Assembly (NCBI RefSeq): GCF_003231495.1
Contig: NZ_PQWO01000050.1
Coordinates: 1 to 8,470, forward strand
Direction of reading: 5' to 3'
DNA: 8,470 nucleotides
Source of the DNA: Acaryochloris thomasi RCC1774
GTDB taxonomy: Bacteria > Cyanobacteriota > Cyanobacteriia > Thermosynechococcales > Thermosynechococcaceae
The first letter of the stretch is position 1; each line of letters starts with the position of its first letter. A program made the position numbers and the translations under genes. Shown here piece by piece: positions 1,164 to 8,470 of this stretch. Below the pieces are notes generated by a model, which had not been told where the DNA came from, ran no database searches, and saw only the letters and a program-made list of their open reading frames with translations.

Positions 1164-1183
1164 AAGCGATATATATATCGCTT
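1164..1183. promoter_or_regulatory. Perfect 20-bp palindrome; candidate operator in the divergent intergenic region 1091-1285
   Basis: AAGCGATATATATATCGCTT is its own reverse complement. It is centred in the AT-rich 195-nt spacer between the RHH operon (minus strand) and the + strand gene array. A second perfect 12-nt palindrome, TATGTATACATA, lies at 1194-1205. Confidence 0.45.
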
Positions 1184-1285
1184 CAGATGCTATTATGTAT
1201 ACATACAGCAAAGGCACCGCCCAATCCCGCTAAGAAACAAGCGATGCCAATGCACTCCCAAGACTAATCAGGAGCTTTACCAATT

Positions 1286-1561: not shown

Positions 1562-1565
1562 ATAT

Positions 1566-1642
1566 CAGGGGGCCACGGTGCCCCCGCCGCCACACTTCAG
1601 AACAACCCCAGCACTACAGAAGGGGACTACCGGAGAATACAC
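1566..1642 (+). repeat. Intergenic module copy 1 (GC hairpin + CTACA-purine box + SD)
   Basis: The hairpin is GGGGGC-cacggt-GCCCCC at 1568-1585. The 25-mer CAGGGGGCCACGGTGCCCCCGCCGC (1566-1590) is identical to 1847-1871. CCCAGCACTACA (1607-1618) is identical to 2731-2742. SD GGAGA lies at 1632-1636 and the GTG at 1643. Confidence 0.85.
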
Positions 1643-1840
1643 GTGATTGATGTCAAAGCCGCTCCCATTCCATGCACCTGGACTGCCTCAGATTCAAACG
1701 ACGACCCTGAGATATTTGCAGTCAGTACCGGCAGCTCACCAGAGCAAGCTATCGCCAACTACTTCGATGCTTGTTTGGAGCTAGACCCGCATTACATGAA
1801 CGATTCGCCAGAGTTCGTTCGATTCCTTCGGAGCTACTAA
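1643..1840 (+). CDS. Small acidic hypothetical protein, 65 aa
   Basis: GTG start 6 nt after GGAGA. By my count it has 11 D/E against 3 K/R. I recognise no motif. Confidence 0.55.
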   Translation: MIDVKAAPIPCTWTASDSNDDPEIFAVSTGSSPEQAIANYFDACLELDPHYMNDSPEFVRFLRSY

Positions 1841-1846
1841 AACAAG

Positions 1847-1916
1847 CAGGGGGCCACGGTGCCCCCGCCGCATCACTTCCGTAAACCCATCGCTACAGGG
1901 AACAGGAGACTTACCA
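1847..1916 (+). repeat. Intergenic module copy 2
   Basis: The hairpin is GGGGGC-cacggt-GCCCCC at 1849-1866. GTAAACCCATCGCTACA (1881-1897) is identical to 2278-2294. SD AGGAGA lies at 1904-1909 and the ATG at 1917. Confidence 0.85.
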
Positions 1917-2252
1917 ATGAAAGCCACGGATTTTATCAACACCCTCTCTCACTCGATTGAAGAGCTTCTAGCTCTGACAAGTGAAGACGATACTGGCTCT
2001 GAACTTGAGCAAAAGCTCTCTGCCAATGGTGACAAGCGCTGGATAGCTCATGGCGCAAAGGGCATTGTTCAAGACTGTCAGCGGGTTATCGATAACCTTT
2101 TGAGCTTCGAGAAGGGCATCAAGCAACCCACACAGTGGGAACAGCAGCACCTCATTCCGCAATGGCAAAGAGCACTCGGGCTATACCTCAGCAAGATGCA
2201 GACAATTGACGAACACTATTGCGCCACTCAACAAAACCAAGGCGAAGCATAG
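1917..2252 (+). CDS. Hypothetical protein, 111 aa
   Basis: ATG start 7 nt after AGGAGA, with a TAG stop at 2250-2252. I recognise no motif. Confidence 0.65.
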   Translation: MKATDFINTLSHSIEELLALTSEDDTGSELEQKLSANGDKRWIAHGAKGIVQDCQRVIDNLLSFEKGIKQPTQWEQQHLIPQWQRALGLYLSKMQTIDEHYCATQQNQGEA

Positions 2253-2313
2253 GCGGGCCATGAGCCACATCTATGCAGTAAACCCATCGCTACAAGGGAC
2301 AGGAGAAATATAC
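2253..2313 (+). repeat. Intergenic module copy 3 (hairpin degenerate)
   Basis: GGCGGGCCATGAGCCAC (2252-2268) aligns to the hairpin of the other copies but has lost the 3' arm. The CTACA box is at 2290-2294, SD AGGAGA at 2301-2306 and the ATG at 2314. Confidence 0.7.
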
Positions 2314-2691
2314 ATGATTACCGCAGAAGCGCTTCAGCAAAACCTCGCGCATTGCACCGGCACCGAGCAATGGCACCAGCATCCACTGGGAATCACTTAC
2401 ACAGACGGCATCAAGATATTAGCCGAGGATGCCCAGTGTCACTGGCTCATTGATGCGATCGCAAGTCACCAGAAGAGCTATCAGATTATATACAACCCTG
2501 ATTTGCAACAGTTTCAGCTCTGGTTGCTGACAGTCAACGAGGACAAAAGCGCAGTTCTGGCCTGCTACGAAGACAGCCCCAGCACTTGTGAACTTGTGAT
2601 CACTCAGCTCATACCGATGACGGATTTCATTTTGCCTGAGATAAAGCTCTACCTGGAGCAAGGAACGCTATTGCTTCCCTCCGAACACTAA
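2314..2691 (+). CDS. DUF6876-like protein, 125 aa (paralogue 1)
   Basis: I re-called the start at ATG 2314, which has an SD 7 nt upstream. The track start, TTG 2206, overlaps the previous gene. The motifs CTGTEQWHQHPLGITYTDG, HWLIDAIASHQ, FQLWLL, SAVLACYED, TDFILPEIKLYL and LLLPSEH match my recollection of the DUF6876 family found on plasmids and phages. Confidence 0.7.
   Translation: MITAEALQQNLAHCTGTEQWHQHPLGITYTDGIKILAEDAQCHWLIDAIASHQKSYQIIYNPDLQQFQLWLLTVNEDKSAVLACYEDSPSTCELVITQLIPMTDFILPEIKLYLEQGTLLLPSEH
2455..2462. repeat. HIP1 octamer GCGATCGC
   Basis: Exact match, read as Ala-Ile-Ala in the called frame. Confidence 0.95.
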
Positions 2692-2695
2692 AGCC

Positions 2696-2764
2696 ATCGG
2701 GGGCCATAGTGCCCCCCAGCAATACCCACGCCCAGCACTACAAGGGCACTACTGAGGATTACCC
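2696..2764 (+). repeat. Intergenic module copy 4
   Basis: The hairpin is GGGGGC-catagt-GCCCCC at 2699-2716. CCCAGCACTACA lies at 2731-2742, SD GAGGA at 2754-2758 and the ATG at 2765. Confidence 0.85.
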
Positions 2765-3139
2765 ATGAAACCAGAAGAACTTGAGCAACGGCTCAGGCAG
2801 TTCTTGCCTAGCCCCACTCGCCATAAACATTTCACTGGGCTTTTATACACCGATGGACTTTTATACATGGTTGAAGAGCTTGAGATGGAGTGGTTAGTTC
2901 TTGCGATCGCAACTCATCAAAAAGGCTCCAGCATCACGGAAAGCAAAGAACTACAGACGTTCCAATGCTGGAAGTTTCACAATGGCAGCACTCCCATCCT
3001 GTTTTGCTACAAGGATAGGCTCAACAAATCCCCAGAGTTTGGCCGTCAAGTCCGCTCTACAGCCTTTCCCCTGCCTGAACTAGAGCTATTCGTGGACAAG
3101 GGAGTGCTCATGCTGCCCTCGGAATACGACGGCTCGTGA
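2765..3139 (+). CDS. DUF6876-like protein, 124 aa (divergent paralogue 2)
   Basis: It aligns by eye to the 2314-2691 product at YTDG, WL..AIA.HQK, LQ.FQ.W, CY.D, P.L.L and G.L.LPSE(H/Y). Identity is roughly 30 percent by eye. Confidence 0.7.
   Translation: MKPEELEQRLRQFLPSPTRHKHFTGLLYTDGLLYMVEELEMEWLVLAIATHQKGSSITESKELQTFQCWKFHNGSTPILFCYKDRLNKSPEFGRQVRSTAFPLPELELFVDKGVLMLPSEYDGS
2903..2910. repeat. HIP1 octamer GCGATCGC
   Basis: Exact match, read as Ala-Ile-Ala in the called frame. Confidence 0.95.
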
Positions 3140-3158: not shown

Positions 3159-3193
3159 TGCGATGGCCCTTGGCCTGCCTTCGGCAATCGCAA
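3159..3193. repeat. 35-nt nested palindromic element, copy B
   Basis: The sequence is TGCGATGGCCCTTGGCCTGCCTTCGGCAATCGCAA. It starts 20 nt after the stop of 2765-3139. The outer stem is TTGCGAT/ATCGCAA, and the inner hairpins are GGCC-ctt-GGCC and GCC-ttc-GGC. Confidence 0.8.
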
Positions 3194-3262: not shown

Positions 3263-3469
3263 ATGCAGACTCCTACCTTACCCCCACGACTTCAGACCAA
3301 CCCACAACATGCAATCGCAGTTGCGATCGCAACTCTCATCAACGATTTGCTTTTCGCGGGCCGGATCGATTGGCATACAGCAGTTTACTACTGTCCGCCT
3401 GGAGTCTTTCATCTGCTGGAGTGTTCAGCAAGCCATGCAACAGTCGCAATCAAATCAATGGAGGCTTAA
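3263..3469 (+). CDS. Hypothetical protein, 68 aa
   Basis: ATG at 3263, preceded by AAGGAA and a CTACA-purine box (3243-3247). I chose this frame over the overlapping 3258 frame for two reasons. Its composition is protein-like, and the HIP1 site at 3323 reads Ala-Ile-Ala, as it does in the other genes here. Confidence 0.5.
   Translation: MQTPTLPPRLQTNPQHAIAVAIATLINDLLFAGRIDWHTAVYYCPPGVFHLLECSASHATVAIKSMEA
3323..3330. repeat. HIP1 octamer GCGATCGC
   Basis: Exact match, read as Ala-Ile-Ala in the 3263-3469 frame. Confidence 0.95.
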
Positions 3470-3473
3470 AGCC

Positions 3474-3944
3474 ATGCAAGCACTAGGATTCTGTGACAGC
3501 CCCAGCTTACTAACCCTTTACGCCCACAGGGGCAACGGTACTAAGCGCTGGTTTTCCTTGGTAGACGGGGAGCCAGTAGAAGCCAGAGAAGCAATCGTTT
3601 GCTACATCAAGGCCATCGAATTCCCAGAGGTAGAACGACGCAACAAGGAGTGCAGAAAGCTGCATATCAAGATCAAAGCTCACCGCTCCATACTCATCGA
3701 AAGCGGCTACAACTCCAATTTCTCAAAGGGATTTCTACTTGCGATCGCAAGCCTGACGCCCGAACAACTGAAGCAACAAATCACGATTGAAGCTGATCCA
3801 GGGAAAGAAGAATCTGTACTCTTCTGCAAGATTTGGCTAGCAGGTCAGCGCATCTTCGTGAAAACGGAGAGCGTCCATGACTGGAGGGCCATTGCAGAAA
3901 AAGCGATCGCTAACGTTCGGGCAGCTCAGGGGGTGAGGGCATGA
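3474..3944 (+). CDS. Hypothetical protein, 156 aa
   Basis: I re-called the start at ATG 3474. GGAGG lies at 3460-3464, and the start is 4 nt after the stop of the upstream gene. The track start at 3258 would overlap the whole upstream gene. I recognise no motif. Confidence 0.6.
   Translation: MQALGFCDSPSLLTLYAHRGNGTKRWFSLVDGEPVEAREAIVCYIKAIEFPEVERRNKECRKLHIKIKAHRSILIESGYNSNFSKGFLLAIASLTPEQLKQQITIEADPGKEESVLFCKIWLAGQRIFVKTESVHDWRAIAEKAIANVRAAQGVRA
3741..3748. repeat. HIP1 octamer GCGATCGC
   Basis: Exact match, read as Ala-Ile-Ala in frame. Confidence 0.95.
3903..3910. repeat. HIP1 octamer GCGATCGC
   Basis: Exact match, read as Ala-Ile-Ala in frame. Confidence 0.95.
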
Positions 3945-6514: not shown

Positions 6515-7342
6515 CTGCCGTTCAACCTATCCATCATCACCGCCACCCATCACCGCCCTGATCTGCTCCGAGCGATCGCACTCCCGAGCCTTCTCAATCA
6601 GACCTGCCTCGATTTTGAGTGGGTCGTCATCAACGACGGCAAAGACCTCACCACCCGAGACCTACTGCAAAACTCAAGCTTTCCCTTCCACACCCACTAC
6701 ATCGAAATCGATCACCCTAAAGAGGGCTTTGGCCTTTGCATTGCCCGCAGTTTAGGGATTAATACGGCTCAGGGCGATCTCGTCTGCTATCTCGATGATG
6801 ACAACGAGCTGAGGCCCGAGTTCATTGCCAACATCCTGCACTGGTTCAAGCAATACCCTGATCACTTCGGCTGTCTGCCGCAGCAGTGGCGACGGCGGGA
6901 CGTGATCCACGAGGGGCAGGTGGTCAAAACAGGAAAGCCCTTCATCTCACCCCAGGCAGATGACACAATCTCGGACCTGATTGCTCAGCGATCGCTATTC
7001 GATAGCAACGGGTTCACCCACCGACGCCAGGGGGCACCCCACTGGAATCCTGACTATCGCGTGTTCTGTGACTACGAGTACTTTCTTCAGTGCTTGGCCG
7101 GTGGCCGGGAGATAGGGCTGAACCCTCAGGTGCTGGTGGATTACGTGCAGACATCTGAAGGTGAAATCGGTCGCTCTAACTATGGTCAGTGGGCGCAGGA
7201 GCTGCAGCAGCTCTACGAGGGGCGTCACGGGTATGATGGAATGGCGCAAGGCTGGGCAGACTGGATGCCCCAAGCGATCCACAAGTATCAGGACAAGGCT
7301 CAAGCATCGATACCCGGATTTAGGAGATCAGCCAATGGTTAA
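6515..7342 (+). CDS. Glycosyltransferase family 2 (GT-A fold), about 275 aa; start codon unresolved
   Basis: The frame is open from 6497, after a TAA at 6494-6496. My hand translation gives LSIITATHHRPDLLRAIALPSLLNQTCLDFEWVVINDG, then GDLVCYLDDDNEL (a DxD motif), then FDSNGFTHRR. This is a classic GT2 N-terminal architecture. The track starts only at GTG 6902, which would delete the nucleotide-binding half. There is no in-frame ATG, GTG or TTG between 6497 and 6901, so the start shown (CTG 6515) is a placeholder. Confidence 0.8.
   Translation: MPFNLSIITATHHRPDLLRAIALPSLLNQTCLDFEWVVINDGKDLTTRDLLQNSSFPFHTHYIEIDHPKEGFGLCIARSLGINTAQGDLVCYLDDDNELRPEFIANILHWFKQYPDHFGCLPQQWRRRDVIHEGQVVKTGKPFISPQADDTISDLIAQRSLFDSNGFTHRRQGAPHWNPDYRVFCDYEYFLQCLAGGREIGLNPQVLVDYVQTSEGEIGRSNYGQWAQELQQLYEGRHGYDGMAQGWADWMPQAIHKYQDKAQASIPGFRRSANG
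6572..6579. repeat. HIP1 octamer GCGATCGC
   Basis: Exact match, read as Ala-Ile-Ala in the GT2 frame. This supports the view that 6515-6901 is coding. Confidence 0.95.
6988..6995. repeat. HIP1 octamer GCGATCGC
   Basis: Exact match. It is the only copy not read as Ala-Ile-Ala; here it reads Gln-Arg-Ser-Leu. Confidence 0.95.
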
Positions 7343-7820
7343 TCAAGTCGTCAAGACAGACAAGCTAACACCTGTGGTAGAGACGATCTTTCACTGGAAG
7401 GTAGGAGATTCTAGCCATTGTTTGCTGAGGATTTACAGGGACGAGCGAGAGGAGCAGGTCATTGTTGTCCTGTCAGAGATTGCCAGCAATCAAGACAATA
7501 CAAGTATCACCCGTGATTTCGAGGCTGTCGTTAATGCCGTCGCAGTGGGGCTTCAAGGTTATCTAGGCTCGGATGTTGCAAAGGTGAATTGGTTGAAGCA
7601 TTATGGCCGATTCTCAGAGCGACCAACATACGAGAATCAGTATGATCCTGAATTCTTCAGGAAATTCCAATTTGAATGGGACTCAGGATATCCCACTCAG
7701 CTCGAAAATGATATCTACATCCACTTAGAGCAAACTAACACCCTATTCCCAGCCTTAGAGTTAGGCTTGGGAGAACAAGTAGACACCGGCATATACGGAA
7801 CTACCATTTTTAATGGATGA
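7335..7820 (+). CDS. Hypothetical protein, 161 aa
   Basis: I re-called the start at ATG 7335, with AGGAGA at 7322-7327. It overlaps the GT2 stop by 8 nt (ATGGTTAA). The track start at 7161 lies inside the GT2 gene in another frame. I recognise no motif. Confidence 0.65.
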   Translation: MVNQVVKTDKLTPVVETIFHWKVGDSSHCLLRIYRDEREEQVIVVLSEIASNQDNTSITRDFEAVVNAVAVGLQGYLGSDVAKVNWLKHYGRFSERPTYENQYDPEFFRKFQFEWDSGYPTQLENDIYIHLEQTNTLFPALELGLGEQVDTGIYGTTIFNG

Positions 7821-8470
7821 GGTACGTGGTAGAGAGATTCTGCCTTCGGTCAAAGAACGGTGTGAGGTTTACCGCAGCAACTTAGCAGACAAGAACATCA
7901 AAATTGTTCGCTTTGCACCTGGCATTAACGAACATATCGATATGCTGCCGCAATATGAAGCAGCTCGATACTCAACAGAAAGCAAGATAAAAACCTTTCA
8001 GCACCTTAATTGCAACGTTGAAAGCCTACTGCTACCTCAAGAGACCTCCGTAAAAGAATTTAATAGGTTGCTTACACAGCTCAATAGCAACCCCAACACA
8101 GTTGGTATCATCGTCCAGAATCCTGTCCCAAAGGATCTTCGTGACAGCTTCGATCTGATTGGCTTCGAGAAAGACCTCGACGGGATGCGGACAGATAACC
8201 CATACTTCTCAACCTCAGCTACCTCAGAGACCATCTATCGCTTAGTCGAGTCTTTCGCTCAAGAGGGAGACACCGTAGCTGTTGTCGGAGCCAGAGGTTT
8301 TGTTGGTAGGGGCGTTGTCAAGCTGCTCAAAGAGGCGGGCATCGAGTTAGCGGCTAGAAGGTCTGGGTTAAGGATTAGTAGCGAGAGGCAGAGTTTGCCG
8401 ATCAACCCAATAGAGATCCCATGCCCGATTGAGCATGACTGTCTTCATTGCAGCGAGTGCATCAGCCGTG
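7813..8470 (+). CDS. Divergent FolD-like (methylene-tetrahydrofolate dehydrogenase/cyclohydrolase family) protein; partial, runs off the window
   Basis: It is absent from the track because no stop is reached. The ATG at 7813 overlaps the upstream stop (ATGGATGA). My hand translation shows several FolD-like stretches. These are YSTESKIKTFQHL (the Y...K.K region), LPQETSVKEFNRLLTQLNSNPNTVGIIVQNPVP (compare E. coli [33 protein letters not shown]), EKDLDGM (compare KDVDGF) and VAVVGARGFVGRGVVKLLKEAG (the Rossmann Gly loop). Similarity is lost after about 8350. Confidence 0.7.
   Translation, partial: MDEVRGREILPSVKERCEVYRSNLADKNIKIVRFAPGINEHIDMLPQYEAARYSTESKIKTFQHLNCNVESLLLPQETSVKEFNRLLTQLNSNPNTVGIIVQNPVPKDLRDSFDLIGFEKDLDGMRTDNPYFSTSATSETIYRLVESFAQEGDTVAVVGARGFVGRGVVKLLKEAGIELAARRSGLRISSERQSLPINPIEIPCPIEHDCLHCSECISR

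Follow-up and report, generated by a model that had tools for sequence, protein, structure and literature searches.

The window, by which we mean the whole 8,470-nucleotide stretch that was analysed, is the complete contig NZ_PQWO01000050.1 of Acaryochloris thomasi RCC1774 and holds an operon of small genes in which four consecutive junctions are each occupied by a copy of the same intergenic module. The copies are homologous, and the module is under purifying selection. All follow one order: the stop codon of the upstream gene, a GGGGGC-N6-GCCCCC hairpin, a C/A-rich spacer, a box reading CCCA.C.CTACA-RGGG, a Shine-Dalgarno (SD) sequence and the start codon of the next gene (Table 1). The initial annotation of this DNA had placed a copy at every one of the four junctions, and an alignment of the copies bears this out, the four intergenic regions being homologous end to end with a mean column identity of 73%.

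The hairpin is present in its exact form in three of the four copies and is decayed in the third copy, as had been described, and that copy is recovered at E = 1e-8 by a covariance model built without it. Its decay is old, because the relative L003 shows the same decayed form (443-499). None of 200 dinucleotide shuffles reached four or more matches to the hairpin pattern at two or fewer mismatches, and the box pattern CCCA[GT]C[AG]CTACA has exactly four occurrences in the window, at 1607, 1886, 2283 and 2731. The hairpin starts 6-8 nt past the stop codon, and the box ends 19-24 nt ahead of the start codon. A covariance-model search with filters off gave no fifth copy in the window on either strand. 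The identical stretches pointed out earlier are also real. A 25-mer common to copies 1 and 2 lies inside repeat D5 (42 nt, 86% identical, spacing 281 nt), a 17-mer common to copies 2 and 3 lies inside repeat D2 (54 nt, 78%), and the 12-mer common to copies 1 and 4 was confirmed. The window copies are mosaic, with one hairpin type common to copies 1 and 2, one box type to copies 2 and 3, and another box type to copies 1 and 4.

The genes at these junctions are mostly unrelated, as first stated. BLASTP showed the first three flanking proteins to be mutually unrelated, and the last two are paralogs within the DUF6876 family; beyond that family assignment, searches of PHROGs and Pfam suggested no function for the cargo genes. 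The start of the first DUF6876 gene is the ATG at 2314 and not the TTG at 2206 of the mechanical open reading frame (ORF) list, and its product is 100% identical to A. thomasi C1752_16672. The N-terminus of the geneA protein matches the first gene of the relative L023, and a homolog of g111 in L001 (61% identical) stands in a context without any module. The distal genes of the operon overlap or abut and have no modules, which implies that the module belongs to the variable proximal part of the operon and is not needed by every gene.

A strong consensus promoter and a conserved 5' untranslated region (UTR) are found upstream of the first gene only. In the window, the probable control region comprises the palindrome AAGCGATATATATATCGCTT (1164-1183), TATTAT (1191-1196) and a conserved 5'-UTR hairpin formed by GGCACCGC (1213-1220) and GCGATGCC (1241-1248). 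The homologous leaders on A. marina plasmids have a consensus TTGACA-17-TATAAT and variants of the stem, which differs between plasmids yet stays paired (GGCACCGC/GCGGTGCC as compared to GGCATCCGG/CTCGGATGCC). The palindrome AAGCGATATATATATCGCTT is perfect over 20 nt, lies just upstream of the probable -10 and adjoins divergent small genes on the minus strand (893-1090 and 687-896); it is likely to be an operator. A complementarity between the box and the 5'-UTR hairpin was rejected: it is a 7-nt match in the window and is not conserved in A. marina.

Table 1. Positions of the genes, control region and module copies in the window, and of the ArdC-like genes in related plasmid loci
Feature	Position	Strand	Details
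Probable operon control region	1164..1250	+	probable promoter, judged by homologous leaders
geneA, first operon gene, 91 amino acids	1286..1561	+	no family match
Module copy 1	1562..1642	+	between geneA and g65; hairpin 1568-1585, box 1607-1618 closed by CCCC/GGGG, GGAG 1632-1635, GTG start 1643; covariance model E = 3e-17
g65, 65-amino-acid cargo gene	1643..1840	+	absent from L003; found in L021, in L022 and on the 39-kb contig of A. thomasi
Module copy 2	1841..1916	+	between g65 and g111; hairpin 1849-1866, box 1886-1897, GGAG 1905-1908; covariance model E = 6e-22
g111, 111-amino-acid cargo gene	1917..2252	+	absent from L021, L022 and L023; present in L003
Module copy 3	2253..2313	+	between g111 and the DUF6876 gene; hairpin decayed (remnant about 2254-2268), box 2283-2294, AGGAG 2301-2305
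DUF6876 gene	2314..2691	+	family match E = 1e-40
Module copy 4	2692..2764	+	between the DUF6876 gene and its paralog; hairpin 2699-2716 (loop CATAGT), box 2731-2742 closed by GCCC/GGGC, GAGGA 2754-2758; covariance model E = 3e-17
Second DUF6876 paralog	2765..3139	+	family match E = 9e-28; 35% identical to the first DUF6876
ArdC-like gene in the DUF6876 slot (cf. L004-L010)	L024 5070-5939		
ArdC-like gene in the DUF6876 slot (cf. L004-L010)	L025 5058-5933		
ArdC-like gene in the DUF6876 slot (cf. L004-L010)	L026 5066-5935		

Related operons and the distribution of the module

Synteny with the window operon is seen in an operon carried by 11 MOBF plasmids of Acaryochloris, which are conjugative or mobilizable. 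In that operon, a divergent small regulator is followed by the consensus promoter, the 5'-UTR hairpin, the first small gene and DUF6876, and then by a long run of small genes in the same direction, among them PAPS-reductase-like, DUF4326, SSB and UmuD genes. A diverged homolog of the module occupies the first junction, between the first gene and DUF6876, on pREB2, pREB5, pREB7, pREB8, pREC4, pMB04 and S15 unnamed15. Its hairpin reads GGGGC-ACCnnT-GCCCC, its C/A-rich spacer contains CACTTAC and its box is CCCA(A/C)TCGCT(A/T)CA..AGGG(G/A), with the AGGGG 9-12 nt ahead of the ATG, which is the position of an SD. A. thomasi itself has at least two further paralogous loci in its genome, the three operon contigs being 8.5, 5.8 and 39.3 kb long, and on the 39-kb contig homologs of g65, g111 and DUF6876 lie side by side. 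Relatives of the window operon also carry ArdC-like genes. Genes of the ArdC, SSB and UmuD types are markers of the leading or establishment regions of plasmids (PMC11541004). The operon would then be of the establishment or anti-restriction type, an assignment to a leading region that is suggested by gene content only.

The initial annotation tied the element to gene boundaries and proposed searching with a model of it to see whether it was confined to this island. In 182 kb of loci, and in three further loci, the covariance model matched junction copies only, always on the sense strand of the genes. The element is thus restricted to operon junctions in the related replicons, but it is not confined to the island, the diverged homolog being present on the Acaryochloris plasmids. 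The complete plasmid pREB8 (120,693 bp) has exactly one copy, and a blastn search of the A. marina module against 72,556 PLSDB plasmids matched 11 Acaryochloris plasmids, in one or two places each, and nothing outside Acaryochloris plasmids. The possibility that the module is a generic repeat is not supported in these replicons. A scan of a viral collection with the window-type pattern gave 0 matches, scans of genome-contig collections gave no related match, and metagenome contigs gave 5 matches, all unrelated by context; these lack HIP1 sites (GCGATCGC), and the one in L017 is a terminator after a lipoprotein gene. Within the window, the related replicons and PLSDB, the module is lineage-restricted and operon-specific.

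Earlier it had been remarked that no cyanobacterial equivalent was known. We found no description of the module or of DUF6876 in the literature searched and no Rfam match to the module, the sole Rfam match in the window being to an irrelevant snoRNA model elsewhere (E = 0.79). The module is thus real, selected and undescribed, but narrow in distribution, and it is plausible that its role in expression is an ordinary one.

Box-like copies elsewhere in the A. marina operons (e.g. L004 9318, CCCATTCGCTTCAGAGGG) were rejected as copies of the module: the covariance model gives them E of about 1 or worse, a 19-mer matching at 79% identity is no more than chance would produce, and they fall within a small hydrophobic ORF that is unannotated. 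An unannotated conserved ORF of about 33 codons, coding for the hydrophobic peptide MNGYTLIWFLFWQ...IPFASEG, is located at about 9395-9494 in L009 and recurs in L005, L007, L010, L011, L004 and L006; in these A. marina operons it overlaps the start codon of the next gene. On the Planktothrix agardhii plasmid p3 (L012), the motif GCTACCGCTT, which differs from the module, sits in three intergenic regions of a DUF6876-containing operon (1620-1656, 2240-2283 and 3450-3500), and in Pseudanabaena (L013) and Halotia (L014) a CTACAA is found directly ahead of the SD of DUF6876. From such sequences, analogous junction motifs may be more widespread.

Three tandem DUF6876 genes are present in L021 (123-1346), the last two overlapping by one base, and two are present in the window, which implies repeated local duplication of the family. 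Both DUF6876 paralogs of the window have a HIP1 site at the same position, within a series at 2453, 2901, 3321, 3739 and 4013 that falls inside consecutive genes with a spacing of about 420-450 nt and shares the extended context TTGCGATCGCAA. The window also contains a 35-nt repeat, TGCGATGGCCCYTGGCCTGCCTTCGGCAATCGCAA, at 498-532 and 3159-3193 (97% identical), after the stop codons of two unrelated genes. It folds into two mini-hairpins closed by a TGCGAT/ATCGCA stem and looks as if 21 nt had been inserted into a HIP1 palindrome. Neither the homologous intergenic region in L021 nor any PLSDB plasmid contains it, and it may be a tiny insertion element. At the 3' end of the window, a family-2 glycosyltransferase gene (6521-7342) and a gene for a protein with a partial tetrahydrofolate dehydrogenase/cyclohydrolase domain (7813-8469) are ordinary metabolic cargo beside the small-gene operon.

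Selection on the module and independence from its cargo

Between the window-type and A. marina-type loci, identity at the 4-fold degenerate sites of DUF6876 is 0.09-0.47, that is, saturated. Across the same divergence 25 columns of the module are invariant in 14 of 14 aligned copies, comprising the GGGGC/GCCCC stem, CCC, C.C..C, A.GG and others, while the 6-nt loop of the hairpin has 12 different sequences among these 14 copies and is shortened to 4 nt in L022. Invariant columns in spite of saturated synonymous sites, together with a free loop, imply that the module is under selection. The sharply uneven conservation and the variable length of the loop also favour a hairpin over a dimer site in double-stranded DNA. 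The box is always flanked by CCC...GGG, and its outer pair shifts between GCCC/GGGC and CCCC/GGGG.

The 25-mer of copies 1 and 2 and the 17-mer of copies 2 and 3 show recent duplication or gene conversion, and one could therefore regard the copies as functionless, neutrally evolving remnants of recent local duplication. The module has been kept at a homologous junction across lineages with saturated synonymous sites, and its conservation is sharply non-uniform, with stem and box invariant and the loop free. This unevenness rules out a neutral relic, and we leave that explanation next to no probability.

A second family of hairpins is found 3' of DUF6876 or ArdC, with the arms GGGTGGT/ACCACCC, GGGTGA/TCACCC, GGGTGA/TCATCC and GGGTAG/CTACTT. 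Two compensatory changes can be seen by eye in this second-junction hairpin, and the formal covariation is weak. The second- and third-junction hairpins stay paired through G-U pairs that exist on the sense strand only.

The conservation of the element independently of its cargo, which had been claimed from the window, holds across the relatives: depending on the locus, the module precedes DUF6876, an ArdC-like gene, g65 or g111. On three plasmids (L024-L026) it stands ahead of an ArdC-like gene instead of DUF6876, and the second-junction hairpin comes after this ArdC-like gene in the same way as after DUF6876 elsewhere. The two genes share a slot, an upstream module and a downstream hairpin, which suggests, by position, that DUF6876 has a role analogous to that of ArdC, in establishment or anti-defence.

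If A denotes the first gene, M the module, DUF the DUF6876 gene and DUF2 the second paralog, four architectures can be written. L023 and the A. marina plasmids have A, M, DUF; L003 has A, M, g111, M, DUF; L021 and L022 have g65, M, DUF, M, DUF2; and the window has A, M, g65, M, g111, M, DUF, M, DUF2. The suggestion that the element acts as a cassette boundary agrees with these loci, since relatives differ by exactly one gene-plus-module unit and DUF6876 and ArdC are swapped between the same flanks. Compared to the window, L003 lacks exactly one 281-nt unit, a module with g65, and this length equals the spacing of the direct repeats in the window. In L021 and L022 g111 is missing, in L023 both g65 and g111 are missing, and these indels end in modules. 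S15, pMB04 and pMB06 have an extra 113-amino-acid gene between two copies of the second-junction hairpin. Cargo independence, the location at sense-strand junctions only and indel boundaries at the linker are thus observed directly. These indels and the mosaic copies fit homologous or unequal recombination between linker copies, and several paralogous plasmids reside in one cell, where an exchange between linkers is easy.

The same arrays could be read as the product of a dedicated recombination site, similar to an integron attC or a single-strand hairpin, at which a recombinase captures cassettes of one ORF and one module. The ORFs are each followed by a structured site of 60-80 nt, the presence of g65, g111, ArdC and DUF6876 is combinatorial, and the module subtype tends to follow the upstream ORF (the first intergenic region of the window resembles that of L023, and the second that of L021 and L022). 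But there is no integrase beside the array in the window, the A. marina loci do not agree in the type of their recombinases or in where these lie, and the site is no whole-site imperfect palindrome and has no RYYYAAC/GTTRRRY cores. The 281-nt indel corresponds to the repeat spacing, as ordinary homologous recombination predicts, and the mosaic modules also fit homologous exchange, so we find a dedicated site quite improbable. Hairpin ends of insertion sequences of the IS200/IS605 type or of palindrome-associated transposable elements (PATE) were rejected as well; there is no TnpA nearby, and the stop/start spacing argues for a role in expression.

A proposed linker in the messenger RNA and the alternatives

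We give about an even chance to the explanation that the module is a selectively maintained intercistronic mRNA linker that doubles as a junction for recombination. What the hairpin does in the RNA, the function of the box as a leader and the mechanism of recombination are all inferred from sequence comparison. The linker would work within the polycistronic mRNA of a long one-directional plasmid operon. Its all-GC stem-loop, 6-12 nt past each stop codon and just beyond the footprint of the terminating ribosome, would serve as a structural boundary or 3' decay barrier for the upstream cistron and not as an intrinsic terminator, whereas the C/A-rich spacer, the box and the SD would together be a common leader from which translation of the downstream cistron is initiated. 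A weak CCC/GGG hairpin that overlaps the SD-like G-run may close the box. Present at several junctions and on co-resident paralogous plasmids, the linker would also be the site of ORF insertion, deletion or exchange, for which homologous or unequal recombination between copies is the simplest route. In the resulting cassette-like array, an ORF dropped between two linkers would be expressed at once.

The absence of a terminator had been claimed before and agrees with our data. The hairpin has a local fold of about -13 kcal/mol and is followed by GCCGCC, GCCGCA or CAGCAA. No terminator-like site is called on the plus strand at the hairpins, so there is no U-tract there; a terminator-like score is obtained only on the antisense strand, because the context of the stop codons is A-rich. 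It is conceivable all the same that the module is a terminator-promoter pair, in which the hairpin stops the upstream transcript and a non-standard sigma factor or polymerase uses the box as its promoter, making each small gene a moron-like transcription unit of its own. The order of hairpin, box, SD and start is as expected for such a pair, and sigma-70-family factors are encoded on some related plasmids. The box also superficially recalls the ...CACTATAGGG... of phage single-subunit polymerases, and its terminal G-run their start sites, which we take to be resemblance only. Against this, the stem lacks a U-tract, no sigma-70-type -35/-10 was found on the sense strand of any module, and the would-be -10 lacks the invariant final T and has T at position 2 in some copies (CGCTTCA). 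The transcript leader would be 15 nt or less, the window encodes neither a sigma factor nor a single-subunit polymerase, and the consensus promoter is located ahead of the first gene only. We consider a terminator-promoter pair improbable.

A likeness to the RNase III processing sites of phage T7 had also been proposed, and it is not supported. The module is indeed positioned between the cistrons of an apparently polycistronic operon, and a hairpin left at the 3' end by processing would stabilise the upstream message. RNase III, however, requires roughly two helical turns of double-stranded RNA. The sole stable helix here is 5-7 bp long, 6 bp for the GGGGGC/GCCCCC stem, longer pairing is not predicted, and the folding energies of the whole units equal those of shuffles (z-scores between -0.4 and -0.7, with copy 3 at +1.6). 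T7-like processing sites are therefore highly improbable.

Several points weigh against the linker itself. The hairpin of the first junction has no formal covariation support, although covariation is uninformative in this case because five of its six pairs never vary, and the invariance of the stem across a saturated divergence could equally reflect sequence-specific recognition. The stem of the box is only 3-4 bp long, and the units as a whole do not fold better than shuffles. The box is also conserved beyond the need of a plain leader, which hints at a specific, unnamed binding partner. With regard to the plasmid context, the MobF relaxase of pREB8 is about 21 kb from the operon.

Some of these points could be accommodated if the module were the operator of a dedicated post-transcriptional regulator, an RNA-binding protein or a small RNA encoded by the plasmid or the host and acting on the hairpin and/or the loop of the box. 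It would co-regulate the translation or stability of all module genes, for example in an expression burst after plasmid entry. The sequence invariance of stem and box exceeds what structure alone requires, and the box always lies within CCC...GGG with its SD-like G-run, so that initiation could be controlled by binding or by refolding. In most A. marina copies, blocking the 5' arm of the hairpin leads to a predicted pairing of the 3' arm with this G-run. The alternative pairing is inconsistent in the window-type copies, though, and as a prediction of folding it is speculative. In the window we found neither an RNA-binding protein family nor a complementary sequence elsewhere, and an operator of this kind seems to us unlikely, if worth keeping in mind. 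A pair of CsrA/RsmA sites was rejected: the pREB8 and pREB5 copies read CACAGGGGCUAAAU, without a CsrA-like GGA motif, and the window encodes no CsrA-family protein. Of the likenesses considered, CsrA sites, lambda nut boxB and T7 promoters, none survives a comparison across copies.

It could also be imagined that the module acts on the transferred single strand of the plasmid, for instance to prime synthesis or as a single-strand promoter, with copies throughout the region that enters first. The relatives carry genes like those of leading regions (ArdC-like, SSB and UmuD, markers according to PMC11541004), and hairpins can form in single-stranded DNA. Yet the 6-bp stem has no promoter hexamers, unlike Frpo-type elements, the fixed stop/start spacing and the included SD point to gene expression, and on the template strand C-A mismatches would take the place of the G-U pairs seen in the second- and third-junction hairpins. 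Moreover, the A. marina plasmids have just one or two copies. A single-strand signal is in our view very improbable.

Returning to the linker, a bolder version would make the module a portable junction for a cassette array that works without an integrase, within the establishment operon of conjugative plasmids in cyanobacteria. ORFs that are plugged in and shuffled among co-resident plasmids would be expressed at once, possibly with a dedicated factor binding RNA or single-stranded DNA. We hold this to be rather unlikely. If true, anti-restriction or establishment ORFs such as ArdC, DUF6876, g65 and g111 would be captured in a manner functionally like that of an integron, though on another principle. 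Acaryochloris has many large paralogous plasmids with a highly fluid gene content, and a selected, cargo-independent linker gives a handle, at the sequence level, on the exchange and continued expression of their small establishment or anti-defence genes. For DUF6876, as yet uncharacterised as a family, its place in the slot of ArdC offers a lead that can be tested. If the module is a compact portable expression junction, it would be a useful part for cyanobacterial polycistronic constructs; if it is merely an ordinary 3' hairpin with a ribosome-binding leader, it is still a neat local example of mosaic evolution.

Comparison with known systems

The module would work like the mosaic linkers of phages combined with an intercistronic hairpin of the stabilising kind, and the layout of its array resembles that of integron cassettes. 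With the RNase III sites of the T7 early region it shares a structured element that recurs from cistron to cistron within a single transcript. The T7 sites are long irregular duplexes of about 20 bp or more, unlike the 5-7 bp helix of the module. With intrinsic terminators the module has the GC-rich stem-loop in common, but not the U-tract 3' of the stem. In Frpo-type elements the hairpin is long and, as a duplex, imitates -35 and -10 hexamers (PMC11541004). No module has such hexamers, and a 6-bp stem does not correspond to an Frpo or ssi element.

For the action of the box, the intercistronic protein-binding sites of chloroplasts, e.g. the PPR10 site upstream of atpH, offer an analogy. They too are conserved intercistronic boxes of 15-20 nt located tens of nucleotides upstream of a start codon, and they can define RNA ends and free or occlude a ribosome-binding site. 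The comparison is purely one of possible action, as no cognate protein is known here.

Regarding the hairpin, intercistronic stem-loops that act as barriers to mRNA decay are known from the repetitive extragenic palindromic (REP) sequences and bacterial interspersed mosaic elements (BIME) at malE-malF of E. coli, from the puf hairpins of Rhodobacter and from the 3' inverted repeats of chloroplasts. The module is similar to them in being GC-rich, free of a U-tract, placed just past a stop codon and found on the sense strand of a polycistronic unit. REPs are dispersed genome-wide in both orientations, whereas the module has 1-4 copies per replicon, at operon junctions only; many dispersed copies in both orientations were not seen in pREB8, the PLSDB Acaryochloris plasmids, the fetched loci or the window. 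The module also differs in including the translation leader of the downstream gene, and its barrier function is predicted.

The array shares several features with integron cassettes. Small promoter-less ORFs in one direction are each followed by a structured site of 60-80 nt, their presence is combinatorial and variable, as seen in the four architectures, and expression would come from one upstream promoter. What the array lacks is an IntI integrase, an attI, R/L core sites and an imperfect palindrome spanning the whole site. Neither the R''/L''...L'/R' arrangement of cores (RYYYAAC ... GTTRRRY) nor a site-long inverted repeat appears in the sequences or their folds, there is no integrase in the window, and the recombinases near the A. 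marina operons follow no consistent pattern. In contrast to integrons, the indels of the array fit homologous recombination between direct repeats.

Boundary sequences are reportedly found at the mosaic junctions of lambdoid phages, in the module model of Susskind and Botstein and in comparisons of HK97, HK022 and HK620. Both these linkers and the module are short conserved intergenic sequences around interchangeable genes, with exchange points at ORF boundaries and with different cargo between the same linkers in related replicons. The module differs in being carried by cyanobacterial plasmids of the conjugative type, in its anatomy of hairpin, spacer and box, and in being multiplied at tandem junctions of one operon. 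As at a mosaic boundary, the first-junction module and the second-junction hairpin bracket either DUF6876 or ArdC.

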